Origin: a virus
Taxonomy: Duplodnaviria > Heunggongvirae > Uroviricota > Caudoviricetes
DNA length: 64,000 nt
IMG/VR virus record: IMGVR_UViG_3300014204_013127
Direction: 5' to 3' (one strand)
The notes below the pieces were generated by a model. That model worked only from the letters and a program-made list of their open reading frames with translations. It made no database searches and was not told the DNA's origin. The translations under genes were made by a program, and so were the position numbers. How positions within the stretch are numbered: the stretch's first letter is position 1; each line of letters starts with the position of its first letter. This document shows positions 418-23,224 of the stretch, piece after piece.

Positions 418-1821
418 ATGGAAGCATTAAAAACACTAATTAGAAGGGTCAATAAATATCGACCAACAATTGTTGTCATAGGTGATTGTCTCCTTGACGA
501 ATACTACAACGTCGTTGCAGATAAACTCTCTCCCGAGTTTCCTATTGTAAGGATGCTGGGCACTAATGAAAGACCAGATGTAGTTGTTCCTGGTGGTGCT
601 GGAAATCTAGCAAATCAATTTAAATATTTTAACACGGATGTTAAACTCTTTGGATTTTTGGATATAGAAAGTCGTCCACTTTATCAATCCATTGGTGTTG
701 ATATTAGTGGATGTGAGACTTTATCTTCGCCTTCTTTTATTCCACGTAAAAGAAGATTCTATCAAGATAATTTCCCCCTTAGTCGTTGGGATATCGAGGT
801 GCCAAATTATGGATTGCAAGATATTGTGGAATATCAAAAGGATTTACTTGCAGCCTATGATGAAGTATCCGATGTTGCTGTGACAATATATGCTGATTAC
901 AACAAGGGAGTCTTATCAGGGGCTAATAAAACTCAATGGTTCAAAAAAGAACGAGACACAATTAGCATAATTGATCCGAAAAAAGGACCGCTTTGCCTTT
1001 GGAATGGTTGCACAATATTTAAGCCCAATGCTAAAGAAGCAGAAGAATTAAGTCATATTCCTTCTGTGCATTGGCAAAATCAATGCGATTTCTTTCAGCG
1101 GCAATTGGGTTGTATGGCGGTTGTTATTACTCATGGTGGTGATGGCGTTTATGGCAAAGTAATGGAAAAATATTTTGATTATCATTCTCCATATAGCTCG
1201 GACTGTGCATCTGTTATTGGGGCTGGTGATTGTTTTATTTCTGTTCTTGGATTAGCGATGGCCCATGCTTTAGATATTGTGGATGCTGTGCAAATAGCTT
1301 ACGAGGCAGGAGCAGTCTATGTTGGCAAGAAATATAATGAACCCATTTGTTTACAAGAGGTATATGCACGTATTGATCCTGTAGGCAGCAAAATGATCGA
1401 TATACAGTGTTTAAACAATAGGCCATACAAACTGGCGGTTACTAATGGGTGTTTTGATATTTTGCATTTTGGACATATGGAAATTCTTAAATTTGCCAAA
1501 TCGAAAGGAGATAAATTGCTTGTGCTTGTGGATACGGATGAGCAAGTAAAGAGATTTAAGGGCGAAGGCAGACCTGTAAATGATTTGCAAGCCAGGATGC
1601 GAATGCTGGCAGCATTGGAATGCGTAGATTTTGTGATGCCTTTTAATAGTAATGATGAGCTACATGATATTTATGCTCAAATTAAACCCGATGTTTTGGT
1701 AAAGGACAATACTTGGCCCTATATTGTGGGATCGGATGTGGCTAAAGAAGTGGTTGTTTTTCCAAGAGTGGAAGGTTATGCAACAACAAATATAGTGGAA
1801 AAAATTAAAAAATCTACATAG
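418..1821 (+). CDS. hldE: bifunctional D-beta-D-heptose 7-phosphate kinase / heptose 1-phosphate adenylyltransferase (HldE/RfaE)
   Basis: 467 aa. The N-terminal ribokinase/pfkB-like domain has GGAGNLAN and GAGDCF motifs. The C-terminal cytidylyltransferase-like domain has TNGCFDILHFGHMEIL, as in HldE domain II. Confidence 0.8.
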   Translation: MEALKTLIRRVNKYRPTIVVIGDCLLDEYYNVVADKLSPEFPIVRMLGTNERPDVVVPGGAGNLANQFKYFNTDVKLFGFLDIESRPLYQSIGVDISGCETLSSPSFIPRKRRFYQDNFPLSRWDIEVPNYGLQDIVEYQKDLLAAYDEVSDVAVTIYADYNKGVLSGANKTQWFKKERDTISIIDPKKGPLCLWNGCTIFKPNAKEAEELSHIPSVHWQNQCDFFQRQLGCMAVVITHGGDGVYGKVMEKYFDYHSPYSSDCASVIGAGDCFISVLGLAMAHALDIVDAVQIAYEAGAVYVGKKYNEPICLQEVYARIDPVGSKMIDIQCLNNRPYKLAVTNGCFDILHFGHMEILKFAKSKGDKLLVLVDTDEQVKRFKGEGRPVNDLQARMRMLAALECVDFVMPFNSNDELHDIYAQIKPDVLVKDNTWPYIVGSDVAKEVVVFPRVEGYATTNIVEKIKKST

Positions 1822-3404: not shown

Positions 3405-3752
3405 ATGCCCCTTTATGATTTTCATTGTATAGATTGTGATTGTGATTATGAGGAATTCGCTCCTTGGAATAAAAGTAACGAATATCCAGATGTAGTTTGT
3501 CCCACATGTGGTTCACATAAAAAAGAAAAATTATTCACGGGAGTGAGAGCAGAGGCTATTTTTGTGAATCCCGAAGGCACCAGGAAATGGAACGATGGTC
3601 AAATGGGACATGATTATCGTTTTAAGCACATGCAGCCTAAAGTAAAACAAGAGCGGGAAAATGCAGAGAAAATGTCGCATATGGGCAAAGATGTTTACAT
3701 ACATCATGATGACATTTCTTCTGGGAAAAATTTCAATCCTAATAATTGGTAA
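3405..3752 (+). CDS. FmdB-family zinc-ribbon protein
   Basis: Begins MPLYDFHCIDCDCDYEEF and continues to CPTCGS, the typical FmdB CxxC...CxxC N-terminal zinc ribbon. Confidence 0.55.
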   Translation: MPLYDFHCIDCDCDYEEFAPWNKSNEYPDVVCPTCGSHKKEKLFTGVRAEAIFVNPEGTRKWNDGQMGHDYRFKHMQPKVKQERENAEKMSHMGKDVYIHHDDISSGKNFNPNNW

Positions 3753-3755
3753 AAT

Positions 3756-4769
3756 ATGGACAGAACAATACTTAGCATTATGATTTTGATGTTGGTCTTG
3801 GCTACTGTCTATGCTTTTTATCACACTCGGCACACAACAGTTGTTCCTTTACCACCACCAGTGCCAACTACACCTGTGGATGTTGCTTTGCAAACAATCA
3901 CAGTAGGTCAAATTAAAGAATATGTTGAAACATTGTCTGATTTAAACAAATTTGATGGCAGAGGTGCTGGAACACCTGGGAACGATGCAGCATGTAAGTA
4001 TATTTCTGATATATTTACATCTTGGGGGTATGAGGTTGAATTGCAACAATTTACTTTTGGTGATCGTCAAACCAACAATATTATGGCATCGATCAAAGGC
4101 AAAAATGACGATGAAGTGGTAGTTGTTGGTGCCCATTACGATGGGCAAGGACCAAACCACCCCAGTGCTGATGATAACGCCTCAGGTACGTCGGTAGTTT
4201 TGGCTGTTGCCAAAGCATTCACTCTTTTAAACAGCGAATTAAATCGCACTGTTGTTTTTCAATTATATTCTGCCGAAGAGTATGGGCTAATTGGATCGAA
4301 TTATTATTGCCAACATCCTCTTTTCCCCAAAGGAAATCCCGACATAAAGAAGCATGTTTTTATGTTGAATATGGATATGGTTGGTTATTGGCAAAGAATG
4401 GTGCGTTTTAATTTGCTGATGCCAAATGACCCAACTCCCGATGTAAAAACATTGATTGAGAATTTATCTAAAAAATATCCATTTGCCAGCACAATTACTC
4501 ATCGAGATAATGCCCCCACTGACAATGCCTCTTTTTGCAATGCAGGGGTGCCAGTGGCATATTTGCACACAGGCATACATAAAAATTATCACCAACCTAC
4601 AGATACTCCAGAGAAATTAAATTATGAGGGGTTGGAAAACATAGCAAAATATGTTGTAGAATTTCTTTTGGCAGTAGATCAAGCTGAGAAGCCAATGCAA
4701 CTTAGGAGCGATTTTGTGCCTCTTGAAATTGAAAAAGATCACGGCGAAGCACCATTTTTTCAGCTTTAA
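3756..4769 (+). CDS. M28-family zinc aminopeptidase with N-terminal TM/signal segment
   Basis: Contains VVVVGAHYDGQG, DDNASGTSVVL and EEYGLIGS, which are conserved M28 metal-binding blocks. N-terminus is hydrophobic. Confidence 0.7.
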   Translation: MDRTILSIMILMLVLATVYAFYHTRHTTVVPLPPPVPTTPVDVALQTITVGQIKEYVETLSDLNKFDGRGAGTPGNDAACKYISDIFTSWGYEVELQQFTFGDRQTNNIMASIKGKNDDEVVVVGAHYDGQGPNHPSADDNASGTSVVLAVAKAFTLLNSELNRTVVFQLYSAEEYGLIGSNYYCQHPLFPKGNPDIKKHVFMLNMDMVGYWQRMVRFNLLMPNDPTPDVKTLIENLSKKYPFASTITHRDNAPTDNASFCNAGVPVAYLHTGIHKNYHQPTDTPEKLNYEGLENIAKYVVEFLLAVDQAEKPMQLRSDFVPLEIEKDHGEAPFFQL

Positions 4770-4781: not shown

Positions 4782-4810
4782 TTGACATATTGTTCTGAAT
4801 GGTTTATGTT
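4782..4810 (+). promoter_or_regulatory. sigma70-like promoter (TTGACA-17-TATGTT) upstream of prkA
   Basis: TTGACA at 4782-4787, a 17-nt spacer, then TATGTT at 4805-4810. About 100 nt of leader precede the ATG at 4915. Confidence 0.4.
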
Positions 4811-4914: not shown

Positions 4915-6990
4915 ATGGACACCAAATTAGAACAACTCGCCAATTTGTTTGATCGGAAGCAATTCAAAGTGCTTCATGAGGAAATTAGTTTTGCCGAATA
5001 TCTGGAAAGGTGCTATAAGACCCCCAGACTTATTCGTACCGCTTATCAACGATTGTATGATATGATAATGAGCGAAGGCACAAAGACTTTCAAGCGGTAC
5101 AGAAAAACTCACACTCATTATTGTTTCTTCGACAATACTGAAATTCCTATTTTCGGATTGGATGAAACTCTTGAGAGTTTGGTCAAATTCATCCGTGGTG
5201 CTGCTGGCGGATATGGTACAGAAAAGCGTGTGTTGCTTTTGCATGGTCCTGTGGGTTCTTCCAAATCCACTATTTGCCGATGCATCAAACGTGGTATGGA
5301 ATATTACAGCAATACCGAAGATGGCATTTGGTATACCTTCAAATGGGTGAATTTGCCCACGGGGAAAGATGGTATTTATACGCATCCCGAAGATGATTGC
5401 CCAATGCATGAAGAGCCACTTAAGTTGCTTCCCCTAGAATTGCGAAAGCGAGTGGTGGATGATTTGAATGAAGTGTTGAAAAACAACACTCCAGAAAATG
5501 AACGCACGCAGCTTTATACACTTCGCTGCGACAATGAATTAGACCCTCGTTGCAAAAAGTTTATGAATGAGTTGTTGCAAAAATATGAGGGTGATTGGGG
5601 CAAAGTCATCAAGGAGCACATTCGTGTTGTTCGCAAGGTTTATTCTGAGCCCGACCGTATGGGCATTGCTACCTTCCAGCCCAAAGATGAAAAAAATCAA
5701 GATTCGACGGAATTGACCGGCGACATTAATTATGCCAAACTCCCGCATTTTGGTTCAGATTCTGATCCTCGGGCGTTCAATTTCGATGGCGAATTTTGCA
5801 TCGGCAACAGGGGCGTAGTGGAATTCATCGAAGTTCTCAAGTTGGCCAAAGAATTCCTCTACGACCTGTTGGGTGCCTCTCAAGAACAACAAATCAAGCC
5901 CAAGAAGTTTGCTCAAATTTCTGTTGATACGGTTTTGATTGGACATACTAATAATCCTGAATTTGAAAAACTTCGATCTGATAATACGATGGAAGCGTTG
6001 AGAGATCGTACTGTTCGCATCGATGTTCCTTATTTGCTTCGATGGGGTGAAGAGTTGGCAATCTTGGAGCATTATTATGGGACGGGAAAAGTCAAGCAAC
6101 ACGTTGCTCCTCACACTTTGGAAATCGCTGCATTGTGGACAATTCTAACCCGCTTGCAGGATGATAAAGAGGGTAAACTATCGCTGGTTGATAAAGCAAA
6201 ATTGCTTGATGGCCGCAGCTTGCCTGGATATACGGAAGATACCGTCAAGGAATTGCGGGACAAATATCCTACAGAAGGAATGTCTGGTGTGTCCTGCCGT
6301 TATACCCAAGATAAGATTTCCAACTGCCTAGCTGCCCGACACGATTATATCAACCAATTTATGGTTTTGAATGAAATCAAGGAAGGGCTAGATCAATCCT
6401 CTCTTATCACGAACAAAGAGGATGTGGCAAAATATATTAAATGTGTGGATGCCGTCAGAAAGGAATTGGATGATATCTTGAAAAATGAAGTCCAAAAAGC
6501 CCTTGTTGGCGACGAAGATGCCATTATCCGTCTTTGCACAAATTATATTGATAATGTGCGAGCTTATATCAATAAGGTCAAAGTTATCAATCAAATTACC
6601 GGCGAAGATATGGAGCCCAACGAACGGCTCATGAGAAGCATCGAAGAAAAGATTGACATTCCCGAAGCGGGAGTGGATGAATTCCGCCGTGGTATTGCTG
6701 CTTTCATCGGCAGTCTTTCCATTGAAGGAAAAGTTTTCCGATGGGACTCTAATGCCAAGCTGAAAAAGGCGTTGGAAATGAAGCTCTTTGAAGACACCAA
6801 GGACCATATTAAATTGAGTGCCTTGGACATTCGGGGCAGTTCGGTAGTAGACCCCGACATTCAACAAAAAATTGACGCTATCAAACAGCGTCTTATCAAA
6901 CAGTATGGATATAATGAACAATCTGCAACGGATGTTCTGGCTCACGTCGGCAGCATCTTCAGTCGTGGAGATGTGAGCGATGACGAGTAA
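4915..6990 (+). CDS. prkA: PrkA/YeaG-family serine protein kinase (AAA+ N-domain plus kinase domain)
   Basis: 691 aa. Walker A LLLHGPVGSSKST matches the YeaG ILYLLGPVGGGKSS region. Overall length and architecture fit PrkA/YeaG. Confidence 0.8.
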   Translation: MDTKLEQLANLFDRKQFKVLHEEISFAEYLERCYKTPRLIRTAYQRLYDMIMSEGTKTFKRYRKTHTHYCFFDNTEIPIFGLDETLESLVKFIRGAAGGYGTEKRVLLLHGPVGSSKSTICRCIKRGMEYYSNTEDGIWYTFKWVNLPTGKDGIYTHPEDDCPMHEEPLKLLPLELRKRVVDDLNEVLKNNTPENERTQLYTLRCDNELDPRCKKFMNELLQKYEGDWGKVIKEHIRVVRKVYSEPDRMGIATFQPKDEKNQDSTELTGDINYAKLPHFGSDSDPRAFNFDGEFCIGNRGVVEFIEVLKLAKEFLYDLLGASQEQQIKPKKFAQISVDTVLIGHTNNPEFEKLRSDNTMEALRDRTVRIDVPYLLRWGEELAILEHYYGTGKVKQHVAPHTLEIAALWTILTRLQDDKEGKLSLVDKAKLLDGRSLPGYTEDTVKELRDKYPTEGMSGVSCRYTQDKISNCLAARHDYINQFMVLNEIKEGLDQSSLITNKEDVAKYIKCVDAVRKELDDILKNEVQKALVGDEDAIIRLCTNYIDNVRAYINKVKVINQITGEDMEPNERLMRSIEEKIDIPEAGVDEFRRGIAAFIGSLSIEGKVFRWDSNAKLKKALEMKLFEDTKDHIKLSALDIRGSSVVDPDIQQKIDAIKQRLIKQYGYNEQSATDVLAHVGSIFSRGDVSDDE

Positions 6991-7208
6991 AAAGCTAACC
7001 ATCAATCAGGATAGATGGTTGAAGGCAGAGTTTTCCACTTTGGTGAAATATGTGGCGTGGAAAACTGGCATATTACAACAAGTTTTGATAAAATATGTTG
7101 TTGCTGCTGGCCAGTATTACAAAGATAAATATGGTTTTTACAAAGATAAAATTGTTGTTTTTGTAAAGAGAGTTTTGTGGAATATTTTTAAAAAAAGACT
7201 ACAAAATA

Positions 7209-7712
7209 ATGGACAATGAAAATATAGAAGTTAAACGCCCCTCCGAGTTTGCTTTGGAAATAGCGGCTACTGCGTGGTGTAAGCCCGCAACTGAAATGAA
7301 AGCGATGGACCCTACTCTGGCAACAGCTTTTGCGGAGATTGTTGATGAAATAATATCTGTGGAACGGTGTGTGTCGAAAGATACTGTGAAACATCAAAAG
7401 CGTTTGATTTTGATGTTGGAAGACAAAGTAAAAACCCTTCGGCAGCAGACATGGATAGATGAAGCCACGATATGTGGTTTGCTCCAAGAACTTGCCGATG
7501 AACGTGCCCAGAATCAAATGGAGTATATAGTGAATAAGATTGATGAGTATTTGGATGAATATAGGGAAATTTACGGCAAGTCTATCAGTGGCAAAGAAGT
7601 GATGAATCATGTGGCACACGAGATAGTTGGTTTTGAATATTTGCACCGGCTCACGTCGCTAATGAGTATGGATGAAATGCCGCATTTTTCATATACAACG
7701 GAAGACGAATAA
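7209..7712 (+). CDS. hypothetical acidic protein
   Basis: 167-aa ORF with no recognisable motif. Confidence 0.4.
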   Translation: MDNENIEVKRPSEFALEIAATAWCKPATEMKAMDPTLATAFAEIVDEIISVERCVSKDTVKHQKRLILMLEDKVKTLRQQTWIDEATICGLLQELADERAQNQMEYIVNKIDEYLDEYREIYGKSISGKEVMNHVAHEIVGFEYLHRLTSLMSMDEMPHFSYTTEDE

Positions 7713-7894
7713 TGCTGTTTATATTGCTTATGATGTTTTTTGTGTGGTGTTGGTGGCTATGGGTGCCTTCTACAATTTTGTTTATTGTTTTGGCCGCTGT
7801 TAGCAAACATGCAGAGTGGTTGTGGGGCATACCTGTTGCCATTATTATTGAGGAAATTTGGTGGATTGCATACTTTAGTGAACACGTAAAATAA
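7712..7894 (+). CDS. small two-TM membrane protein (Trp-rich)
   Basis: 60-aa ORF with two hydrophobic helices; start overlaps the upstream stop. Confidence 0.3.
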   Translation: MLFILLMMFFVWCWWLWVPSTILFIVLAAVSKHAEWLWGIPVAIIIEEIWWIAYFSEHVK

Positions 7895-8610
7895 TGACAA
7901 CAAGATTTAGTCCAACCCCCAGTGGTAGACTTCACTTGGGGCATTTATATTTAGCATTGATAAACTATCATACCGCTGCCAGAGAGGGCGGCAGATTCAT
8001 AGTTAGGTTTGATGATCTGGATTTTCCAGAGTTGCAATCCTTGGGCAGAGATAAAGTCAATGAATTTTGTGAGACCATAAAGGAAGAGTTTTCTTGGATG
8101 GGTATGAAAGTTGATTTGTATTCTCATACTGCTAAAGAGCATGAAACAAATCTGCAATATTTGTCTGGTGTTCCTGGGTTGGAAAAGGATGATGGAATTA
8201 AATGGTCTCGCCCCTTTGTCAGAAATGAGGATAGGCCCTACCCATTTATTCCCCTAATCACAGCCATCAAGGTTGTGCAAGATCATCGTGAGGGATGTAA
8301 TATAATTATTCGTGGAGAGGACTTAGTATCGGAATCCAGTCTTTATTATTACTTCTGTCGATTGTTGGGGTTTGTTCCTCCAAAGCTATGTTATATACCT
8401 AAATTAATTCAACGAGATGGTCAAGACCTTTCCGATATGTCGAAGACCAGGGGCAATTTCAAGATTAAGGATTATCGTGAAAGAGGCTATGCCCCCCAGG
8501 ATGTTTTGAATTTATTGGCTGAGGCTTGTTTGGAGAAGTCTGACGGGGGTTGGTATGTGGAAAACACAAAGAAAAACCCTGTCTTAGACAAGCCTTACTG
8601 GGAACAATAA
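7894..8610 (+). CDS. truncated class-I GluRS catalytic-core protein (glutamyl-Q tRNA(Asp) synthetase-like)
   Basis: FSPTPSGRLHLGHL is a HIGH-type motif. RFIVRFDDLD, IIIRGEDL and the KMSKS-like DMSKTRG parallel the E. coli GluQ-RS (YadB) blocks. Only 238 aa. Confidence 0.5.
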   Translation: MTTRFSPTPSGRLHLGHLYLALINYHTAAREGGRFIVRFDDLDFPELQSLGRDKVNEFCETIKEEFSWMGMKVDLYSHTAKEHETNLQYLSGVPGLEKDDGIKWSRPFVRNEDRPYPFIPLITAIKVVQDHREGCNIIIRGEDLVSESSLYYYFCRLLGFVPPKLCYIPKLIQRDGQDLSDMSKTRGNFKIKDYRERGYAPQDVLNLLAEACLEKSDGGWYVENTKKNPVLDKPYWEQ

Positions 8611-9644
8611 TGAGCGTCATAGTTTTAGGATACAATAGCACAGATTATGGCAAGGATGATTTTGCAAGGTTTGCCGAATGTGAAATCGAAGCAGTGTGGT
8701 ATTATAATTATTGGTGGGAAACAGAGCCATTTCCTGGCAAATATAATTTTGACAGATTGTTAGAAGCAGAAGACTTAGCCAGGGCTAATGGTGTTAAAAT
8801 GTATGTCCACACTCCGGTGGGCACACCTCTATGGGCAGACCCTTCTTGGTATTTGCTCAATCAATATGGACAGGGCAATGATTTCTCGAAAGCGTTGGCA
8901 AGTTATAACCCTGCATTAAAAGATTTAAATGAGCAATTTTTCCCTTGGGGGAATGAATTGGGGCTGAGATTAGTCAATAGGTTTTTTAGTTATTGGCATG
9001 CCCAGGCTGAGAGCTATACGCAAAATTATATTGGGGTAGTAAAGAATACTTTTAAACATGCTATTACTGTTGGCAGCTTGGGTTGTTGGGGGGAATATTT
9101 TTTTCCATCGCCTCATTTTTATCAATTTATGGGCATAAAAGATTCCCCTTGGTGGTATGATATAAATGCCACATATAATTGGGTAACATCAGGATTGACC
9201 AGAGAAGATTGGTGCCGAAAAGAATTGTTGCGAGTATTAAAAGAACGCATGTTGTTAGGTGGTGAGAATTGGGTTCTTTTAGTTCCATATTGGAAGGATT
9301 GGGACAATTTTCAATTTGGCAATGATGGGTTTCAAGATATATACAAGGACAAGTCTCTCAACTTGAAATCTATTCTTTTGAGTGTGTTTCCCAATTATGT
9401 GAATTTGGTTTCTCCTCACGCAAAATTAAGTCCTACATATGGTGGTGCGGGCGGTGCAGAAGGAGTTGCAGTCAACGCTCTTGCCGCACAAAAACTTGGT
9501 TTGGCAGGACTGTTTTGTGGATTGCTGGGAGGATCGTCAACTGGTAGTGGTTCTGGTTTAATCAAGAAAACAGAGCCCTGGATGTTTGAAAATGTCAAAA
9601 AGGCCGTGTGGATTTTTAAGCATTTAAAAATTTTGATGTATTGA
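8610..9644 (+). CDS. putative TIM-barrel glycoside hydrolase-like protein (GH42/GH35/GH14-like signature) with Gly-rich C-terminus
   Basis: YWWETEPFPGKYNFDRLLEAEDLARANGVKMYV resembles the W..EP.EG.YDF block of clan GH-A glycosidases. ATG at 8610 overlaps the upstream stop (TAATG). Confidence 0.3.
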   Translation: MSVIVLGYNSTDYGKDDFARFAECEIEAVWYYNYWWETEPFPGKYNFDRLLEAEDLARANGVKMYVHTPVGTPLWADPSWYLLNQYGQGNDFSKALASYNPALKDLNEQFFPWGNELGLRLVNRFFSYWHAQAESYTQNYIGVVKNTFKHAITVGSLGCWGEYFFPSPHFYQFMGIKDSPWWYDINATYNWVTSGLTREDWCRKELLRVLKERMLLGGENWVLLVPYWKDWDNFQFGNDGFQDIYKDKSLNLKSILLSVFPNYVNLVSPHAKLSPTYGGAGGAEGVAVNALAAQKLGLAGLFCGLLGGSSTGSGSGLIKKTEPWMFENVKKAVWIFKHLKILMY

Positions 9645-9690
9645 TTAGGTGCAGGGATTTTGATACAATAGCATCATCAAGGAACTAATT

Positions 9691-10959
9691 ATGTTAGATG
9701 ATTTGTTGACTACAAGACGCATTGATGAAGATTATCAAGATTTTATTGATGTATATTCAGGTAAAATTCGCAAAGAATTGAGCAAATACATCAAAAATAG
9801 AAATGTTTGGCGATTGCGTGGAAAAAATGGTCGTCTTCGCATTACTGTGCCTCGCATTGATATACCACATATTGTTCGTGGTCAAGAAGAGGAAGGCATC
9901 GGCAGAGGTCCAGGTAAAAAGGGTGATGTTATTGGCAAAGACCCAGAGCCAGGGCAAGGCAATGATGCTGGGCAGGAAGAATCAGAAGGCGTCACCGTCG
10001 AGATATCGATGGAAGAAGTTTTGAAGCTTATGAAAGATGAGTTGGCTCTTCCAAATATGAAGCCCAAGCCGCAGGAAATTTATGAAGAAAAGAAAATAAA
10101 ATATAATGACATAGCTCTTCAAGGTCCAGAATCTTTGCGACATAATCGCCGCACTTGGTTACAGGCACTGAAGAGAATGTGTGCTTCTGGAGAGATTTTT
10201 AATCTACACGAAGTGCCGGGTTGTCCTGATCCCATACAACTGATTACGCCCATTAACAGTGATAAGCGATATCGGCAGTACAAGGAATTTAATGTTCCTT
10301 CTTCTAATGCCGTAATCTTTTTTGCCCGTGACGGTTCTGGCAGCATGGATCAATATAAATGTGATATTGTATCCGATATGGCTTGGTGGATTGATGTTTG
10401 GATTCGACATTTCTACAAACGTACTGAGCGTGTTTATATTTGGCATGATACTATTGCTCAAGAAGTAGATGAGCATAAATTTTATCGTTATCGTTATGGT
10501 GGCGGAACAACTTGTTCATCAGCTTTAAAACTAATTTCCAAGCAGTTTGAGGCTCGTTATCCTCCTGAGAAATGGAATATTTATGTGTTTTATTTCACGG
10601 ATGGCGAAAACTGGGGCGAGGATAATCAGGTTTTTTGTGATACTATTAAAAATGAATTTCCAGGGCACATCGTTAATTTAATTGGTATTACTCAAATTTT
10701 GCCTTGGAGTAGTCAAAATAGCCTAAAGGAATATGTTGATACCAATCTTCCTGATTGTCCTAATTTAAAAACTACGGGAATTGGTATGAACGAAGCCTCT
10801 GCCAGAACGAAAATATCTGCTGGTTATTATAGTACGCCTCAATTGACGGAAGAAGAAAGAAATAATCAAATTACCAAAGCTATTTTGGATTTGTTGGGTG
10901 CTGCCAAAACAAAAGATGGCTATCCAGCAGATGATACGATGACAATGCACCAACATTAA
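9691..10959 (+). CDS. yeaH: YeaH/YhbH-family protein (DUF444, vWA-like)
   Basis: Block-by-block match to E. coli YeaH: DGSGSMD (DVSGSMD), HDTIAQEVDEHKF (HHTQAKEVDEHEF), GGGTTCSSALKL (GGTIVSSALKL), WNIYVFYFTDGENW (WNIYAAQASDGDNW). Confidence 0.8.
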   Translation: MLDDLLTTRRIDEDYQDFIDVYSGKIRKELSKYIKNRNVWRLRGKNGRLRITVPRIDIPHIVRGQEEEGIGRGPGKKGDVIGKDPEPGQGNDAGQEESEGVTVEISMEEVLKLMKDELALPNMKPKPQEIYEEKKIKYNDIALQGPESLRHNRRTWLQALKRMCASGEIFNLHEVPGCPDPIQLITPINSDKRYRQYKEFNVPSSNAVIFFARDGSGSMDQYKCDIVSDMAWWIDVWIRHFYKRTERVYIWHDTIAQEVDEHKFYRYRYGGGTTCSSALKLISKQFEARYPPEKWNIYVFYFTDGENWGEDNQVFCDTIKNEFPGHIVNLIGITQILPWSSQNSLKEYVDTNLPDCPNLKTTGIGMNEASARTKISAGYYSTPQLTEEERNNQITKAILDLLGAAKTKDGYPADDTMTMHQH

Positions 10960-10971
10960 AGGAAATAAATA

Positions 10972-12570
10972 GTGGCAAGCAAAATGATGCGTGGTTCTCC
11001 GATCTTGATGGGTGATAGCACAATCCCTGGCGTAGTGTTGCCTAAGGAATTGCAAAATGTCATTCCCAATATTATGAAAGCAGCAACCGACTTTGGATTG
11101 GTGTATTATCCAACAGTCGTGCAGATGCTGACTTATGATGAAATTAGCGAAGTAGCATCCTATGGTGGATTCCCTGTTCGTTATCCGCATTGGCGTTGGG
11201 GAATGGAATACAATGAATTGCAACAAGGTTATGAACATGGGCTGCATCGCATTTACGAAATGGTTGTAAATAGCAATCCTTGTTATATTTACTGTCTCGA
11301 TTCCAATACGTTGGTGGATAATGTTACGGTTGTTGCTCATGCTTTAGGACATAATGACTTTTTCAAAAATAATGTTTACTTTTCGCCAACTAGTCAAAAT
11401 ATGATGAATGAATTGGCGAATCATGGTACTCGAATTCGCAAATACATGCAACGATGGGGCAAAGAAAAAGTCACAGAATTTTTAGATCATGTGCTAAGAA
11501 TTACCACGTTGGTCGATCCAGCTAGTGCTTGGGAGCAGAGAAAATTTAAAGACCCGATCAAACAGGACGTGAGGCATTATCATCATCCAAAACATTTGCC
11601 GGTTCAAGAGGGGCATGATTATATGGAACCTTGGCTCAATCCAGAAGAATGGATGAAGGAGCAAAGGAAGAGGTTGGAAAAAAGGGAGGTGGCCGAAGAA
11701 TTAAACATTTTCAAAGAGCCAACAAAAGACATTTTGCGGTACATTCGAGATTATGCACCTTTGCAGCCTTGGCAGTCTGATATTGTTGCTATGATTTATG
11801 AGGAAGAAATATATTTCAGTCCTCAACGACCGACCAAAATGCTCAACGAAGGCTGGGCTAGTTTTGTTGATTTTAACTTAATGGCAGTACAGGGTTTCGT
11901 TAGTCTGGGCCAGTCAGAACACGATAATGGCATTGTTGAGTATGCTATTCACAAAATGGGGGTATTGGGCGGCAAGTATTCGATGAATCCCTATAAATTA
12001 GGATTCTGTATTTTTCAAGATATTGAAGAACGTTGGAATAAGGGCCAGTTTGGACCCCTGTATGATGAGTGCCGAGATATCAAGCAGCGGGAAGATTGGG
12101 ATGAAAAATTGGGCTTGGGGCACGATAAAGTATTAGAGGTTAGAAAATTCTATAATGATTTCACCGCTATTTCAGAATTCTTCACAGAAGATTTTTGCAA
12201 TAAATATGAATTCTTTGAGTGGGAACATCGACCTAATGGAGAGTATGTAATCAAGAGTCGTGACTATAAGAAAATTAAAAAGAAATTAATTGGCGATTAT
12301 TTGAACGGCGGATTGCCAGATGTTCGGCTGGCTGATCCCAACCATTTAAATAGAGGGCACATGTTGTTACAGCATCAGTGGGATGGATATCCGCTATATC
12401 CTTCCTATGCAAAGGATACCATCCTTTCTCTGCGAAGATTGTGGGGGTTGAACAGAGAAGTCATATTGGCTACCAGGGACAAAGATGGCGAGGAATTGAT
12501 CTATGTCACCAGATCACCAGATACTGTTGTTGCGGTCAACAGACAGGAATATGACAAAATCATTGGATAA
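10972..12570 (+). CDS. spoVR: SpoVR/YcgB-family protein
   Basis: YPHWRWGMEY, EMVVNSNPCYIYCL and AHALGHNDFFKNN match the conserved YcgB/SpoVR core. 532 aa. An in-frame ATG at 10981 is an alternative start. Confidence 0.8.
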   Translation: MASKMMRGSPILMGDSTIPGVVLPKELQNVIPNIMKAATDFGLVYYPTVVQMLTYDEISEVASYGGFPVRYPHWRWGMEYNELQQGYEHGLHRIYEMVVNSNPCYIYCLDSNTLVDNVTVVAHALGHNDFFKNNVYFSPTSQNMMNELANHGTRIRKYMQRWGKEKVTEFLDHVLRITTLVDPASAWEQRKFKDPIKQDVRHYHHPKHLPVQEGHDYMEPWLNPEEWMKEQRKRLEKREVAEELNIFKEPTKDILRYIRDYAPLQPWQSDIVAMIYEEEIYFSPQRPTKMLNEGWASFVDFNLMAVQGFVSLGQSEHDNGIVEYAIHKMGVLGGKYSMNPYKLGFCIFQDIEERWNKGQFGPLYDECRDIKQREDWDEKLGLGHDKVLEVRKFYNDFTAISEFFTEDFCNKYEFFEWEHRPNGEYVIKSRDYKKIKKKLIGDYLNGGLPDVRLADPNHLNRGHMLLQHQWDGYPLYPSYAKDTILSLRRLWGLNREVILATRDKDGEELIYVTRSPDTVVAVNRQEYDKIIG

Positions 12571-14115: not shown

Positions 14116-15453
14116 ATGAATGACATAGTTGGTTTCGAGCATTTGCATCGCCATTCTCATTATTCTTTGTTGGATGGATACGGCACAGTTGAAGAGTATG
14201 CGATTTATTCCAAAGAAATAAATCAACAATATCTTTGCATTACCGATCACGGCATGATGAGTGCTGTTCCTAACCAAATCGCTTGCTGCGATAAACACGG
14301 TTTGCAGCCAATTTTTGGCGTAGAAATCTATTATCAACCAAAACAGCCCTGTGTGCAAAAGGGCGAGACTATGCAGCAGTATCTTAAAGAGATGCCACCA
14401 GAAGCCCGCAAGGCGATGCAGAAGTCATATCACATGACCTTGTGGGCCAAAAACGAGACAGGATATAAAAATCTTGTTCGTTTAACTTCTTTTGGATGGC
14501 TACACGGCTTCTACTATAAGCCTCGCATTAATTGGGATCAATTAGTGCAGCATAAAGAGGGGTTGATGGTTGGCAGCGGTTGTTTTAATAGTCCAGTGGG
14601 ACAAGCATTTAAAAACTTCGGTCCCGAAATGGCTATAGAGACCATCAAGAAATATCACAACTTGTTTGGTGAAAATTATTATTTGGAAATCATGTTGTTG
14701 GATTTTGTTAAACAAAAGCCCTACAACCAATTCATTGTTCAAGCACATGCAAAATTAGGCATTCCGTTAGTGCTCACACAAGACTGTCATTATTGCAAAA
14801 AAGAAGACAGCAAAATGCAACGGTTAATGCTTATGACTGGCTCTAAGAGAACGGTAGCCGATATGGAGCAAGCCGTTGCCGAAGGTAAAGCTGAAGAATA
14901 TTTTGAGTTGCAAGACACTAATCTCTGGATGAAATCCGAAGAGGAGATCAATGAGAAATGGGCATCTGACCCTTATCTCGATAAGGATTTGTTTAATGCT
15001 GCCAAGGCAAATACTGTGCGTATATGCGAACAATGCAAGGGAGTGCAACTGGATCGCTCGGTAAAATTGCCAAAAATTCCCAATGATGATGAAGTGTTGA
15101 AAAAACTTATCCAAGAGGGTGCGACTAAAAGAGGCATACCAAAGACTAGAGAATACTTGTCCAGAATGCAGGAAGAATACACCTTGGTGAAAGAGAAGGA
15201 GTTTTCTTCGTATTTTATTATTCAAAAAATGATGGTTGACGCTGCCCGTCAGAAATGCATCGAGTTATACGGCGGCACGGGAAGCACGGCAAGAGGGCCG
15301 GGCAGAGGCTCTGGTGCCGGGTTTATGATAAATTATCTTTTGGGAATAACTGATGTTGACCCGGTGAAGTATGATCTGTTATCATCAAGGTTCCTGAGCC
15401 CTGCTCGTGGTGGCAAGCAAATGAAAATCAGGTTTGATGACAAGCCATTATGA
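14116..15453 (+). CDS. dnaE: DNA polymerase III alpha subunit, N-terminal fragment (PHP domain to the thumb/palm boundary)
   Basis: The PHP motif [15 protein letters not shown] is present. The fragment ends ...[40 protein letters not shown], which parallels E. coli DnaE ~340-400 ([38 protein letters not shown]), followed by a stop codon. Confidence 0.8.
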   Translation: [445 protein letters not shown]

Positions 15454-15469
15454 TAAAGAGCGTGTTTGA

Positions 15470-15805
15470 GTGAAAAAAAAGCAACCTAAACCACCTGCCG
15501 AACCTTTTAAGTATAGCCCTAAGGTCACGCTACATCCAGGGGATGTATTTCGTTGCTCTGGTGGTCCATATTATGTTACTCAAACTGGGGAAAAGCTGGC
15601 GATGGGGCAGCGGGGCTTGTTTTCTTATGTCAATATAGCACAAGATGGTATCTTGGCTGTGCCATATAAGCCAAGACCATCAGCGGTGCTAACAGGATCA
15701 GCCATAGTTTTTATTTATATGGGGGAAGAAAAAGTATCGGAAACAACGGGTACTAATTTTTGTCCGCATAAGATTAGGAAAGTTCGCAAAAAGGCATCAA
15801 AATGA
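15470..15805 (+). CDS. hypothetical protein (GTG start)
   Basis: 111-aa ORF. It begins a run of nine small + strand ORFs (15470-18478) with overlapping stop/start codons. Confidence 0.3.
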   Translation: MKKKQPKPPAEPFKYSPKVTLHPGDVFRCSGGPYYVTQTGEKLAMGQRGLFSYVNIAQDGILAVPYKPRPSAVLTGSAIVFIYMGEEKVSETTGTNFCPHKIRKVRKKASK

Positions 15806-16689
15806 ACGAAGAAAAGCCAGCCAAAGGTGTGCGTGGATTTTTGTTGTATAGCCCTTTTGTGAAGAAATATTTTTTTAGGATTTATAACGAAGATAAAACA
15901 TTCGAAGATTACGACTTATGTGCAGCAGACATAGAAGTTGAAATTATTGATAATTCAATTGCTTTGTATTCTGGAAGTCGTAATAAAGTCGATTATACTA
16001 GTAAAGTTTTAGGCATAAAGGATAAAAATGACAAGCAGATATGAGTACGAGACTTCTCTTCCAAATTATGAACATCCAGTAGAGGAGAGAATAATGAATG
16101 TGTATGAAATTGACGATGGAGAACAATGGTGGTTCGCTGCCGAATCTAAAGATGAGGCTTTGCGATTATATTTAGAACCATTGGTTCCAGAAGGCACTGA
16201 CTTAAGTGATTTATCTAAAGTGTTGGTAGATCATTTACTTGATTGTCCTGTGGACGAAATAGAAGTCAACGAAGTTCCTCTTGAAACAGAATTGTCTGTG
16301 ACACAAGATGATGGGGTTACAGTAATTAAAAAGACTGCCTTTGAGTGGGCGGCAGACGGTGCAGGTCTAATAGCAGCAACAGTTTGGTGATTTATGAAGT
16401 TTCCAAAAAGAATCTCTTACACAACTGTCCCAGAGACAAAAAGCAACACTCCGATAGAAATATTGGATGAATATCTCCATAAAATCCTATTGTTAAATGT
16501 GTCACAAAAAAGTAAAATAGTGGCAAGTAGAGCTATACATGAACTGGGCGGATATAAACCATCCAAACAATTGTTTAGTAATGCCAGTAAAATAATTTGG
16601 GATTATGAAAATTCTGGTGAAATAGCTGATAATGTTCCATGCGAGTTATGGGACTTAATTTACAACATAATGAACGAAAGGAATAAAAA

Positions 16690-17193
16690 ATGACAACAAC
16701 TTACAAAGACGCTCCAGAAGTTAAAAAAATTGCTGATGAGTTGATTCCCAAATATCATCAACACATTGTGGATTTCAATGTGCGGGTGGATTATTTATTC
16801 ATAGATAAGGTTCCTATGAAGGGCGATTCGGAAGTTTGGGGCACATGTCGAAAAATAACCAATCTCAATGCCTACTTGGCTGCTGACAAACAAAGTGGTG
16901 GTGATCCATTCTTTGTTATTACAATTTCTGAGCCAATTTGGGATGTTCTTCCAGAAGATAAGCGTATTGCTTTGGTTGACCACGAATTGTGTCATACGGC
17001 GGCAGAATATCAAGAAAAGGATGATGAAGAGCCGGTGCTCAAATTATCTTGTAAGCCGCACGATATGGAAGAGTTTGCTTGTATCGTCAAACGACATGGC
17101 ATGTGGAGAGACAGCATTCAAGATTTTGTAGACAATGCAAGGAAAGACAAAGAAGATACCACCGAGGAAATTGAAGAAGAAGATTTAGAATGA
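16690..17193 (+). CDS. hypothetical HExxH-motif protein with acidic tail
   Basis: A VDHELCHTAAE zinc-metallopeptidase-like motif in a 167-aa protein. Confidence 0.3.
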   Translation: MTTTYKDAPEVKKIADELIPKYHQHIVDFNVRVDYLFIDKVPMKGDSEVWGTCRKITNLNAYLAADKQSGGDPFFVITISEPIWDVLPEDKRIALVDHELCHTAAEYQEKDDEEPVLKLSCKPHDMEEFACIVKRHGMWRDSIQDFVDNARKDKEDTTEEIEEEDLE

Positions 17194-17729
17194 TAGTTTA
17201 TGAGCATAGAGAATGGTTAATACAGGTGCCCGATGGATTGCAGGAATTAGATGTTGTTGGTAAGTTAAAACAACTCGGCTGGGAATGGTGTGATGCCTAC
17301 GATAGCGATAATCATCATCCATTTCGATATGGTCATTATCATACGTTCGACCATAGTGTAGTCGAAGCTACCGAGAAAGAATTTGGCAATAAAACAACCA
17401 CAGATATAGTAGGGTGGATAAGAGATGAAGTGTTCGATTGAATTAGAGCCTGATGATATTGTTGATATCCATGACATGATTGCGGATTGTTTGAGCATTG
17501 ATCTTACAGAGAGTGAAATCCGTGGTTTGATGGATGGTGAGTGGGATATATTGATGGATATGGCAAAATATGGTGCAGACGATACTCCTACCAGAGAGAA
17601 ATTGATGGCAGATATAGGACGGCGATTGACTTGTAAGCCATATCCATCGCATTGTTCGCAAGAAATTAAAGACGCTTACCATAAAGAAGTATTGGTAAAA
17701 GCCAAAGAATGGGGCTATAAGGTAATTGA

Positions 17730-18314
17730 ATGAGATACAGAATAGAAAGCCGACTACAGGATGAAGGATGGAAATACGATGGACAGGAATTTGATTATTT
17801 AAATCAAGCTGTCCAGTTTTGCAAAAATGAGGATGGCTTCTTTTGGGGTATGATGCGGGTTATTGATATGGTAGAAAAGACAGTTGTGGTGGAGTTTCCC
17901 GCTGTTAGTGCCAAAGAGAAGCAGGCAATGCAAATTACTACTAACATGCCAAAAAATGAACAGAAGTTAGATTACACCAAGAAAGGTGACAGCATGGTGC
18001 GAAAAGAATTTGTTTTTGCAATGCTCGGTGCTCCAATTGTTTCATTGGAAATTACAGACGAGCAATACACAGAGATTGCCAATAGAATTAAAAGGGTGAT
18101 GGATGTGTATAAATCGAAAATGCCAGAGGAGATGTTATCAATTCTGGAAGAGGAAGGCGTATTAGCACACGTCAAGTATGCCATTGGTAGAATCAGGGCA
18201 AAATATACTGTTATGCCCGGCCAAGATAACCATTTAGCTCTGGACGGCAGAGATTTAGCTGCCGAGGGACTTGAAAGCATCAGATGGTGGTACGAAATGT
18301 TGGAGAGCTACTAA
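17730..18314 (+). CDS. hypothetical protein
   Basis: 194-aa ORF with no recognisable motif. Confidence 0.35.
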   Translation: MRYRIESRLQDEGWKYDGQEFDYLNQAVQFCKNEDGFFWGMMRVIDMVEKTVVVEFPAVSAKEKQAMQITTNMPKNEQKLDYTKKGDSMVRKEFVFAMLGAPIVSLEITDEQYTEIANRIKRVMDVYKSKMPEEMLSILEEEGVLAHVKYAIGRIRAKYTVMPGQDNHLALDGRDLAAEGLESIRWWYEMLESY

Positions 18315-18474
18315 TGGACAAGGCGATGGATGAGGCATTCTTCAAAAAGCTCAAAGAGACAGTGTTTACATGCGAGCCCACAAGGGATTTTCCAGGGGAT
18401 TACGCAAGTTTCAGAAATTTGGGCTATGATGATGATACAATCGAATGGTTGTATCATCATCTAGATAAGGATGA

Positions 18475-18933
18475 TTAGAAGGATGTGAATTTACGCACAG
18501 TAGCAGGTTTTTTACGGTGGTAGATTCCTTCTATGTGTTTTCTGGCTAATGTCCTCAGTAGATGTTTTTCTTCTGGGGTGGCGACACCTTTTTCTAATTT
18601 GTTTCTTAGCCTGTAATATTCTGCCCCAAGGTATTGTTTAGCATTTTGTAGCTCTTCTTTATCAGGGTCTACTATGTGCATTCCACGGGGAAGTCGAGAA
18701 TCTTTTCCCAAGGCTCTTCCTTGAGTGGTTCCCAAATCACTTACTGGTGTTCGAACTCCAGTTAATGCGTGCCCTCTTCGCATTCGTCGCTCTTCATCCT
18801 CCCAGTCCTCATCGTCGCCCCAATCTTCCCAGGGATCGTCGTCTTCATCTGTGTCTTTAGGAACGGGAGTGTTTGGGCCTATGATATCCCACTTTTCATG
18901 AAGTTTCAGCCATTCATTGAATGATGTGTTCAT
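18475..18933 (-). CDS. hypothetical protein with acidic DDEDDDPWEDWGDDEDWEDEE stretch
   Basis: 152-aa minus-strand ORF, co-oriented with the next gene. Confidence 0.4.
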   Translation of the reverse strand: MNTSFNEWLKLHEKWDIIGPNTPVPKDTDEDDDPWEDWGDDEDWEDEERRMRRGHALTGVRTPVSDLGTTQGRALGKDSRLPRGMHIVDPDKEELQNAKQYLGAEYYRLRNKLEKGVATPEEKHLLRTLARKHIEGIYHRKKPATVRKFTSF

Positions 18934-20160
18934 TTAATCTCTTTTCATATATTGATTTAATGCATGAATAAGATGGTCCATTGCAAACTTTCCTCGATGC
19001 ATTCCCATATGTTTGCCCATCATGCCCATTATGTGTTTCCCCATTCCAGGCATTTCGCCGCCTAATTCATCTTCACCACCTAGTTCATCGCCTAACTCAT
19101 CTTCGTCACCTAGCTCATCCTCATCGCCTAATTCATCTTCGTCACCTAGTTCATCCTCATCGCCTAATTCATCTTCGTCACCTAGTTCATCCTCATCTTC
19201 AAAATCATCATCATCCTCTGGATAATCTTCGTCATCGTCTTCAAAATCTTCTGGTTCGCCATCATCACCAATGCGACGGGTGACTTCTTCATCGTCTCCT
19301 ATATTGTCTATTCCAATAGGAGGACCAACGATTTCATTCATGGCTCGTACTAATGCATTGCAACGCATAGAGCCTTTTTGTTCTTCTCCCAAAAGATTAG
19401 TAAGGGATCGATAAGACTCAGGATATTCCATCAACATTTCCATCAGGCTGCCGATTAATTTTTTTTGTCTCAACGCCACAACCAAATCTCGCAAAATGTT
19501 TTCATTGTTGGCTACTGAAGCAATGTATTTAATAGCTTGTGGCACTTCTGCTTGATGAACGCCCTCAACAGATCGCTCTTCTTTAATCATGTATTGGGTG
19601 AATTCGCTCAGGGGCATGCCTTTTGTTTTCTTTAAGAAGGTCTCTGTTTTTGTAGTGTAATCCCCAACACTTTTTCCGCCCGGTATATGTGGTGAATCGC
19701 CTGCCTTGAGTTTAATTTCTTCTCGGGGAATACTCCCTAAGTTACCCAGTCCTTCATCACTATTTTTGGGCTTAGCATCTGTGCCTTGCTTATAGGCAGC
19801 GGGTTTGCTGGCTTTGGGAGCCTTAGTATCCCAATTTTTTCCCTTGGTCTTGGCTTCGGGAGGAGCAACGGGTGGCTTGAAGGGATAGTCAGCAATAATT
19901 TCCGTGGCTGGTTTTTCTACCACAGAGCTTGCCTGCTTTTTTTCCAAAAACTTAGCCCATAATCCTTCTTTGACCTGAGGTTGCTCATCGGCTACTTTTT
20001 TTATATTTTTGTGTGTCTTGGCTTCTTTGGGTGGCTTATTGGGTTCGCCGCAAAGATCATCGGCTCCAGTTAGCTTGTCGCCTGTTTTGATAATTTTGGG
20101 TTTGCGAACCAACTCTGGGTCTTTTCTTTCGAGAAACTTGTTGAATTTGGGATATTTCAT
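18934..20160 (-). CDS. hypothetical protein with C-terminal (DEDELG)n acidic tandem repeat and His/Met/Gly-rich tail
   Basis: 408 aa. The basic Lys/Pro-rich N-terminal half and the strongly acidic repeat are encoded by an 18/36-bp tandem DNA repeat. Confidence 0.5.
   Translation of the reverse strand: MKYPKFNKFLERKDPELVRKPKIIKTGDKLTGADDLCGEPNKPPKEAKTHKNIKKVADEQPQVKEGLWAKFLEKKQASSVVEKPATEIIADYPFKPPVAPPEAKTKGKNWDTKAPKASKPAAYKQGTDAKPKNSDEGLGNLGSIPREEIKLKAGDSPHIPGGKSVGDYTTKTETFLKKTKGMPLSEFTQYMIKEERSVEGVHQAEVPQAIKYIASVANNENILRDLVVALRQKKLIGSLMEMLMEYPESYRSLTNLLGEEQKGSMRCNALVRAMNEIVGPPIGIDNIGDDEEVTRRIGDDGEPEDFEDDDEDYPEDDDDFEDEDELGDEDELGDEDELGDEDELGDEDELGDEDELGDELGGEDELGGEMPGMGKHIMGMMGKHMGMHRGKFAMDHLIHALNQYMKRD
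19055..19200 (-). repeat. coding tandem repeat (18-bp units alternating in a 36-bp period, about 6-8 copies) encoding DEDELG
   Basis: Direct reading of ...cacctagttcatcctcatcgcctaattcatcttcgt... repeated. The + strand Ser-rich ORF 19013-19225 is an artefact of this repeat. Confidence 0.6.
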
Positions 20161-20161
20161 A

Positions 20162-20350
20162 TTATTTTCCTTGTGTATTTAACGCCATTAGAAGCCAAAG
20201 GATGAGGTAAAGGAGTATTCCGCTACCGCCAGCTAAAAAGAATATTATAAATAATATCCTGATAATAAATGGGTCACAGCTAAAATCCTTGGCAAGTCCA
20301 CTGCATACGCCTGCAATCATCGCATTCTCTTTGTCTAATTGAAAGGCCAT
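20162..20350 (-). CDS. PspC-domain small membrane protein
   Basis: MIAGVCSGLAKDFSCDPFIIRILFIIFFLAGGSGILLYLILWLL matches the PspC N-terminal domain consensus (GVCgGlA..f.iDp..vRl) and is followed by a TM helix. Confidence 0.5.
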   Translation of the reverse strand: MAFQLDKENAMIAGVCSGLAKDFSCDPFIIRILFIIFFLAGGSGILLYLILWLLMALNTQGK

Positions 20351-20361
20351 AATTTTACCTC

Positions 20362-20398
20362 TTGTCTGTATTTAGTGTAGAAACTATAATTTTCTACA
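20362..20398 (+). promoter_or_regulatory. sigma70-like promoter (TTGTCT-17-TATAAT) overlapped by an 8-7-8 inverted repeat TGTAGAAA-ctataat-TTTCTACA (operator-like)
   Basis: -35 at 20362-20367 and -10 at 20385-20390. A perfect 8-bp inverted repeat at 20376-20398 straddles the -10. It lies in the divergent region between the PspC-domain gene (-) and the HD-domain gene (+). Confidence 0.4.
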
Positions 20399-20404
20399 AT
20401 AGAT

Positions 20405-21232: not shown

Positions 21233-21241
21233 GGAGGCTAC

Positions 21242-23222: not shown

Positions 23223-23224
23223 CC

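Follow-up and report, generated by a model that had tools for sequence, protein, structure and literature searches.

The proteins named YeaG, YeaH and YcgB in Escherichia coli, and PrkA, YhbH and SpoVR in Bacillus subtilis, act jointly when bacteria starve or sporulate; among stress modules with a mechanism yet to be explained, theirs is one of the most widespread in bacteria. Across six bacteria, yeaG, yeaH and ycgB show cofitness at r > 0.7, from which a single pathway with species-specific outputs was inferred (10.1101/072470); PrkA itself has been classed among the clade III AAA+ proteins, as similar to FtsH/YME1, and its C-terminal domain has been called kinase-like (PMC13001217). Here we analyse the same trio in viral DNA, a stretch of 64,000 nucleotides from a member of the Caudoviricetes (IMG/VR record IMGVR_UViG_3300014204_013127; the whole stretch is called the window below), in which prkA, yeaH and spoVR lie within positions 4915–12570. 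The three genes are intact and sit in a viral genome, and a clade of related viruses retains them, inherits them together and shows purifying selection on each, a pattern that speaks for a single uptake of the operon, long ago and in its entirety.

The window's trio has in common with the E. coli and B. subtilis systems the same three Pfam families and the same gene order, as in most bacteria, and it shares with both the Walker A residues of PrkA, the metal-ion-dependent adhesion site (MIDAS) of YeaH and the H-x3-H/E residues of SpoVR; overall identity to the E. coli proteins is only 25–29%.

Results

Integrity of the three genes

All three open reading frames (ORFs; Table 1) were recognised by their Pfam families. 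PrkA matched AAA_PrkA (PF08298; 1.4e-77, 261.6 bits) and PrkA_C (PF06798; 6.2e-70, 236.2 bits; cut-offs 25), YeaH matched DUF444 (PF04285; 7.4e-65, 220.1 bits, cut-off 27), and SpoVR matched the SpoVR family (PF04293; 3.8e-107, 359 bits, cut-off 27) and, weakly, SpoVR_C. The initial annotation of this DNA, made from its letters alone, had described three full-length, co-oriented proteins with diagnostic motifs, and this description holds: the Walker A of PrkA is intact (GPVGSSKS, residues 111–118), and both RDGSGSMD in YeaH (residues 213–220) and AHALGHNDFFKNN in SpoVR (residues 122–134) are present. A public gene call places the start of spoVR at 10984, 12 nt later than 10972, giving a product of 528 aa.

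Residue conservation was assessed against 41 references outside this phage's clade, comprising long-type bacterial operons, E. coli YeaG/YeaH/YcgB and other phage lineages. At columns conserved in at least 93% of these references, the window retained 75 of 84 residues in PrkA, 31 of 38 in YeaH and 38 of 42 in SpoVR. The MIDAS of YeaH (DxSxS...T...D) is kept in full (D214, S216, S218, T273 and D304), and the AlphaFold2 model of the protein, with a core at residues 195–370 at a predicted local distance difference test score of 75–88, matched von Willebrand factor A (vWA) domains in Foldseek (E 6e-8, probability 1.0). PrkA matched PDB entry 9xip, 'Serine protein kinase' (692 aa), at E 7e-207 and fell below the NCBIfam YeaG equivalog NF011999 (197.7 bits vs a cut-off of 576); by sequence similarity, it is a member of the long subtype of about 690 aa, with 9xip as its nearest PDB entry. 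Similarly, YeaH stayed below every NCBIfam equivalog cut-off (best 298 bits vs 388), as did SpoVR (161.5 vs 679).

Viral context of the window

Most ORFs of the window are colinear, in inverted order and at 23–68% amino acid identity, with positions 290–360 kb of LR756511.1 (SR-VP_PHAGE_COMPLETE_CIR-CU-CL_42_23), a curated, complete and circularised phage genome of 595,163 bp from vernal-pool mud (Al-Shayeb et al. 2020 supplement), and this colinearity covers both sides of the trio. In IMG/VR, a PrkA 62–75% identical to that of the window is encoded on at least 137 viral contigs, the longest of 572 kb. The same neighbourhood was found in three large contigs taken from the protein database (634, 546 and 125 kb), with genes for thymidylate synthase, dihydrofolate reductase, DNA methyltransferases and HNH proteins and many tiny ORFs. 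The window itself carries phage-type genes (PhageMetallopep, PhoH, HNH/endonuclease VII, DnaE and a transfer-messenger RNA, tmRNA), has a coding density of 93% with 78 of 98 ORFs on one strand, and is dense in small ORFs without a family match. Neither tRNA nor rRNA genes were found in the window, and no ribosomal-protein family matched among the window ORFs scanned.

Public labels for such sequences are cellular in part. NCBI holds an identical PrkA (100%) and SpoVR as 'MAG: ... [Proteobacteria bacterium]' (MAG, metagenome-assembled genome) on a contig of 340,072 bp, and two near-identical phage-like contigs, L006 (GCA_003352295.1 QQVH01000006.1, 546,492 bp) and L008 (CALFYV010000090.1, 546,147 bp), are assigned to Crenarchaeota and Bacteriovoracaceae, respectively. 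Because near-identical 546-kb contigs carry inconsistent labels, we regard the cellular labels as binning artefacts; huge-phage genomes appear to have been mis-binned into cellular MAGs. One MAG that holds such a phage-like contig serves as a GTDB species representative. These results support the assignment of the window to a huge-phage genome related to the 595-kb LR756511.1, and the phage context assumed in the initial annotation stands, the evidence running against the cellular alternative.

Retention, co-inheritance and selection

We compared 85 viral-clade loci with a PrkA ORF. All 79 informative loci hold the trio in the order prkA-yeaH-spoVR; in the remaining six the sequence ends less than 2.4 kb past prkA. 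The linkage is far beyond chance, because the same order is kept in 79 of 79 informative related loci. Whereas yeaH and spoVR abut in almost all loci of the clade, the gap between prkA and yeaH ranges from 6 to 2700 bp across the 79 loci (median 296), and the window has the largest.

For cellular relatives, 185,579 species-representative genomes were scanned, and the best 80 of at least 599 confirmed matches were kept; the statements on cellular sequences in this text refer to these 80. The nearest cellular relatives were long-type operons of Calditrichota, Planctomycetota, Myxococcota, Chloroflexota and Bdellovibrionota, whose proteins were 52–57% (PrkA), 32–43% (YeaH) and 36–43% (SpoVR) identical to those of the window. 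No bona fide cellular PrkA exceeded 57% identity, the sole match above this value being a mis-binned 546-kb phage-like contig, whereas PrkA sequences of the viral clade were 62–84% identical to the window's.

Neighbour-joining (NJ) trees with 200 bootstraps were built for each of the three proteins from 92 complete loci, of which 51 belong to the viral clade, 34 are long-type bacterial, one is that of E. coli and six come from other phages. Each protein recovered the same four groups. The viral clade was monophyletic (bootstraps of 200/200/200 for PrkA/YeaH/SpoVR) and lay outside all sampled long-type cellular operons, which formed a group of their own (200/199/183); the YeaG-type group joined E. 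coli with the phages RsoM2USA, LR745206 and LR756504 (200/200/200), and the Thermus phages made up the fourth (200/109/195). No single phylum stood out as the donor. Within the viral clade, the distance matrices of the three proteins were correlated at r = 0.83–0.91, a level reached by 0 of 500 permutations. Taken together, the congruent trees, the correlated distances and the gap to cellular sequences point to a single old entry as a unit: the operon would have been captured whole in the distant past and passed on vertically since, rather than picked up recently. The joint acquisition that the initial annotation had raised as a question for phylogeny is thus borne out by trees and distances alike. 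Furthermore, Nei-Gojobori ratios of nonsynonymous to synonymous substitution (dN/dS) between close viral pairs were 0.03–0.15 for all three genes, values indicating that the trio is under strong purifying selection in the phage clade.

Trios in other phages

A tblastn search against 50,697 phage records revealed clustered trios in the Thermus phages phiYS40, TMA, YS40_Isch, phiLo and MN1, in the Ralstonia jumbo phage RsoM2USA, and in the 634–636-kb huge phages LR745206 and LR756504. These are bona fide phage genomes, several of them cultured, and their trios are clustered like that of the window, at only 21–33% identity to its proteins. Unlike the window's, the trios of RsoM2USA, LR745206 and LR756504 fall with YeaG of E. 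coli (PrkA distance 0.48–0.63); the Thermus phages, whose genes run yeaH-spoVR-(X)-prkA, make up a third type and a divergent one. The other phage trios fall into two other groups, implying that the complete trio was captured at least three times separately by phages. Entries in the Al-Shayeb et al. 2020 supplement, with PrkA nearest to Pontibacter or Thermaerobacter and SpoVR nearest to Ktedonobacter, suggest that there are further types. A megablast of the 7.7-kb region against INPHARED phages gave no match; hence only protein-level searches detect the phage relatives.

Published phage genomes thus already include the genes, with hardly any comment on them. The annotation of phiYS40 (2006; NC_008584) lists YS40_056 as 'conserved bacterial protein', YS40_057 as 'SpoVR' and YS40_059 as 'serine kinase', labels that the other Thermus phages found here carry as well; the RsoM2USA paper gives SpoVR and PrkA separately, under different functional headings (PMC8504454); the supplementary tables of Al-Shayeb et al. 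2020 contain PrkA, DUF444 and SpoVR Pfam matches in several huge phages, and the main text of that paper mentions none of the three genes. PHROGs v4 includes families for each of the three proteins, under the label 'unknown function', and in a virome study spoVR came out as the viral 'sporulation AMG' of highest abundance (auxiliary metabolic gene; PMC8940887). The initial annotation had suggested that the window's trio would be a new class of auxiliary regulatory genes, a claim that is not supported because other trio-bearing phages are already public; the instance in the window is not itself a new kind of element. Our full-text literature search found no paper treating the trio as one phage module, and that it travels as such a module, core to a huge-phage clade, seems to be unrecognised in the searchable literature.

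The SpoVR site and inteins at invariant motifs

The conserved SpoVR residues H73, E96, H123, H127, D172 and E293 are all present in the window; H123-x3-H127, E96 and the NEG[WFC]A[ST] motif that contains E293 are invariant, and this last motif recalls the third-ligand motif of M1 peptidases. The histidine pair reads H-[A/V]-x-x-H in 92 of 92 sequences and never HExxH, so that the catalytic Glu is absent. The SpoVR model gave no significant match to the PDB in Foldseek, and SpoVR segments gave no peptidase match against Pfam at E ≤ 10. Because neither Foldseek nor Pfam supports it, we keep the idea of a zincin-like metalloprotein only as a lead. At position 300 of SpoVR (window ~11869–11871), every sequence of the window's viral clade has Asp (52 of 92) and every cellular or other-phage sequence examined has His (40 of 92); one helical turn past the NEGWAS motif, D300 may be a clade-specific change of metal ligand.

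In 22 of the 79 viral-clade loci the SpoVR ORF is long (716–1375 aa vs ~530). The two long ORFs sampled (L140:14188-18315 and L112:13781-16696) contain one or two inteins with LAGLIDADG endonucleases, inserted at approximately the window-equivalent residues ~100–120 and ~297–314, and a PrkA homologue of 1083 aa (P0106) contains an intein near residue ~296. All of these intein sites in SpoVR and PrkA adjoin invariant motifs, which fits with proteins that have kept their function.

Cargo, flanking genes and promoter

The window differs from its relatives in the 2700 bp that break the adjacency of the co-oriented prkA and yeaH. The initial annotation counted three genes in this interval; it contains four ORFs, of 79, 167, 238 and 344 aa (Table 1). 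None of the four has a homologue in the other 84 of the 85 viral-clade loci compared, and in relatives the same slot is filled by other genes: a Methyltransf_24 gene, a Mom-like gene or, in the closest relative with DNA (84% PrkA identity), a DUF4379 gene. Cargo unique to the window and different cargo in the slot of its relatives mark the interruption as a later event, confined to this lineage, in which genes entered a variable slot of an operon that, judged by these comparisons, was ancestrally tight. The GluQRS-like call on the 238-aa ORF is reasonable (Pfam tRNA-synt_1c 1.8e-23, with HLGH and MSK motifs kept), at a score below the NCBIfam GluQRS cut-off (89.7 bits vs 250). The 'GH-like' label of the 344-aa ORF does not hold up: its single Pfam match is GH42 at E 6e-4 and 19.6 bits, under the cut-off of 21, and it matched nothing in PHROG or NCBIfam and nothing significantly among PDB sequences.

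Table 1 Features of the window discussed in the text (positions in nucleotides)
Feature	Coordinates	Strand	Description
prkA	4915..6990	+	691 aa, long-type PrkA: AAA+ ATPase domain and kinase-like C-terminal domain
yeaH/yhbH	9691..10959	+	422 aa, DUF444 protein, C-terminal vWA domain, intact MIDAS
spoVR/ycgB	10972..12570	+	532 aa, GTG start, SpoVR family
79-aa ORF	6980..7219	+	No Pfam, PHROG, NCBIfam or PADLOC match
167-aa ORF	7209..7712	+	No significant family match
GluQRS-like class I aminoacyl-tRNA-synthetase catalytic domain	7894..8610	+	238 aa
344-aa ORF ('GH-like' gene)	8610..9644	+	Function unassigned by any family
FmdB-type zinc-ribbon protein	3405..3752	+	NCBIfam TIGR02605 9.4e-11
M28 aminopeptidase	3756..4769	+	Pfam Peptidase_M28 1.3e-39; between zinc-ribbon gene and prkA
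Sigma-70-like promoter match	4782..4810	+	TTGACA-17-TATGTT, 10/12 match (putative)
HldE-like bifunctional protein	418..1821	+	PfkB kinase and cytidylyltransferase-like domain
DnaE, first ORF	14116..15453	+	PHP domain and start of polymerase core
Stretch between DnaE ORFs	15454..36081		Includes a low-GC block; especially 28000–36000
tmRNA	22272..22618	+	One-piece; tag ANDYVALAA
DnaE, second ORF	36082..38700	+	Rest of core, finger and HhH (helix-hairpin-helix) domains
Thiamine-pyrophosphate (TPP) enzyme	50430..52034	+	Three TPP domains
PhoH-like ATPase	59984..60628	+	'Phosphate starvation-inducible'; phrog_170 3e-67

Upstream of the trio, a homologue of the FmdB-type zinc-ribbon gene was found in 77 of the 86 viral-clade loci screened, and one of the HldE-like gene in 74 of 86. 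The M28 aminopeptidase gene has no homologue in the other 84 viral-clade loci, nor has the 140-aa ORF that follows spoVR in the other loci of the clade. A gap of 145 nt precedes prkA, and the promoter match reported in the initial annotation is present in it, ending 104 nt upstream of the gene; promoter-like sites show no enrichment in the region (37 vs 32.9 ± 6.9 in shuffles). A match of at least 10/12 upstream of prkA occurs in 15% of 84 related loci vs 6.5% of shuffles. We therefore treat TTGACA-17-TATGTT as a putative, generic sigma-70-like site that is statistically undistinctive.

Other features of the window

The gene for DnaE (DNA polymerase III alpha) is split into two ORFs that lie 20.6 kb apart. 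In LR756511.1, DnaE is one continuous ORF of 1183 aa, and both halves of the window's gene align to its residues 410–437; relatives also carry a separate N-terminal half of 440–480 aa. A split intein was considered for the two halves and rejected, as the N-terminal half ends 14 aa past the homology and no intein domain was detected. The stretch between them, which includes a block of low GC content (0.34–0.35 vs ~0.40 elsewhere), has genes for radical SAM enzymes and for a methyltransferase, along with a weak match to glycosyltransferases, and looks like an inserted modification or biosynthesis island. It also contains the tmRNA (ARAGORN; Rfam RF00023, 119.6 bits), whose tag starts with AND, a start that we take to resemble proteobacterial tags and that might hint at the host. 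The PhoH-like ATPase is a second starvation-associated, host-like gene in the window. The TPP enzyme resembles acetolactate synthase or pyruvate decarboxylase; its gene, which is conserved in LR756511.1 at 46% identity, is of a metabolic kind unusual in phages.

Discussion

We lean, with some confidence, towards reading the trio as an old phage operon of single capture with a role in host starvation adaptation. The ancestor of the phage clade would have taken up the operon once, as a unit, from a bacterium with the long (~690 aa) type of PrkA; the operon would then have been inherited vertically under strong purifying selection and, in the genome of the window, would later have been split by the ~2.7 kb of lineage-specific cargo. 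As in bacteria, the three proteins would act jointly, with PrkA as an ATP-driven AAA+ ring bearing a kinase-like C-terminal domain, YeaH as its vWA/MIDAS partner, and SpoVR as a metal binder whose site is H-x3-H...E and whose fold may be zincin-like. Expressed by the phage, such a module would supply or override the host's pathway of adaptation to nutrient limitation or stationary phase, and a long infection of a starved, slow-growing cell would still yield progeny. We infer the joint action, the biochemical activity and the physiological role of the phage trio by analogy with bacteria, and the rewiring of the host's starvation or stationary-phase programme proposed in the initial annotation is plausible on the same grounds.

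Several points weigh against this account. The activity of PrkA is disputed in bacteria, where it has been proposed to be a kinase, a protease or neither, and a 2026 study found that purified B. anthracis PrkA had no kinase or protease activity (PMC13001217). Our trees are of the NJ type, distance-based only, and their cellular sample is the best 80 genome matches. The 64-kb window contains no virion structural gene (capsid, tail or terminase), so the argument for its virality rests on relatives. Lastly, in a near-identical relative (ENA ERZ1426851, a 16,209-bp contig with a YeaH 98% identical to the window's), SpoVR is called as fragments of 49, 237 and 278 aa, which may reflect sequencing or assembly indels or true decay in one strain.

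Among the other explanations, we give a minor but serious share to a repurposing of the trio for ATP-dependent protein remodelling or proteolysis within the phage's own programme, serving to convert host proteins into amino acids or to mature phage proteins, rather than for starvation signalling. In 31 of 65 informative viral loci (including L005, L006 and L007), spoVR is followed at a distance of 0–1351 bp by a ClpP gene, an arrangement seen in no bona fide cellular locus; the one other match is the phage-like contig L008. The M28 aminopeptidase gene directly upstream of the window's prkA, the likeness of PrkA to FtsH/YME1 (PMC13001217) and the placement of the module among replication and nucleotide-metabolism genes fit this explanation as well. 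On the other side, the window has no ClpP gene at all, and half of the informative loci lack one too; the catalytic glutamate of an HExxH site is missing from all 92 SpoVR sequences examined, and neither Foldseek nor Pfam supports a link to peptidases; and the purified B. anthracis PrkA was devoid of protease activity. A part in phage-phage or phage-defence conflict, in which the trio blocks host dormancy or an abortive response or excludes superinfecting phages, strikes us as improbable. E. coli YeaG is tied to dormancy-like heterogeneity and toxin-antitoxin expression, and AAA+/vWA pairs do occur in conflict systems; yet the trio, the GluQRS-like ORF and the 79-, 344- and 140-aa ORFs had no PADLOC defence-model match at E ≤ 0.01, the sole marginal match (0.0096) fell on the 167-aa cargo ORF, and the replication and nucleotide-metabolism genes around the trio do not make up a defence or anti-defence island.

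We attach very little weight to the trio being a recent host passenger (a moron) with no selected phage role, linked only because its donor operon was. Bacterial donors do have the identical prkA-yeaH-spoVR arrangement, huge phages carry many host-like genes, and one near-identical relative has the fragmented SpoVR call. Against this stand the retention in all 79 informative loci over a range of 62–84% PrkA identity, the low dN/dS values, the monophyly of the viral clade well apart from the sampled cellular sequences (at most 57% identity), and the fact that phages unrelated to one another took up the whole trio independently at least three times, which argues for selection. That the contig is a fragment of a bacterial chromosome or megaplasmid, as the Proteobacteria label on identical proteins and the missing virion genes could be taken to mean, is scarcely credible in view of the colinearity with a curated circularised 595-kb phage genome, the close relatives on at least 137 IMG/VR viral contigs, the inconsistent binning of near-identical contigs, the PhoH, HNH and PhageMetallopep genes among dense small ORFs, and the lack of tRNA, rRNA and ribosomal-protein findings described above.

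The reading as an old operon for host starvation adaptation leaves room for a more specific proposal. The combination of an AAA+ ring, a MIDAS adaptor and a metal-binding partner suggests one machine. Tentatively, and with a good deal of doubt, the trio might be a self-contained machine of AAA+ motor, MIDAS vWA adaptor and cryptic zincin-fold metalloprotein that switches between growth and dormancy, captured at least three times for long infections of starved or dormant hosts. If this were true, phage copies with inteins marking the active sites would offer a new handle on a biochemical puzzle of about 30 years. The sequence clues for mechanism are the intein sites, the H-x3-H...E site of SpoVR and its possible zincin fold.

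Exceptionless retention across the clade, purifying selection and separate captures together provide strong comparative evidence that the trio is one portable functional unit. For phages, it is a candidate cassette of several regulatory genes that would serve in the infection of hosts short of nutrients. The recurrent capture of the complete trio by large phages is under-appreciated and experimentally approachable, as the culturable Thermus and Ralstonia carriers are tractable systems with small, self-contained operons.

Compared with known systems, the window's trio departs from those of E. coli and B. subtilis in being encoded by a virus, in its long-type PrkA and in the 2.7 kb of unrelated genes that it encloses. 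Expression is RpoS/NtrC-dependent in E. coli and sigma-E-dependent in B. subtilis, whereas the window offers only the putative generic sigma-70-like match. The long-type cellular operons, its nearest relatives outside viruses, are tight in the order prkA-yeaH-spoVR, whereas the window's is interrupted. Formally, the list of parts (an AAA+ ring, a MIDAS vWA protein and a possible zincin-fold protein) matches systems of the MoxR/RavA-ViaA type, in which an AAA+ ATPase has a vWA partner, and FtsH/YME1, in which AAA+ is fused to a zincin peptidase. Phages with PhoH, Bacillus phages with a YhbH-like 'sporulation protein' and viromes with spoVS, spoVG or spoVR AMGs likewise carry host-physiology genes of an auxiliary or host-takeover kind; each of these is a single gene, whereas the window holds a complete three-component pathway conserved as a unit.

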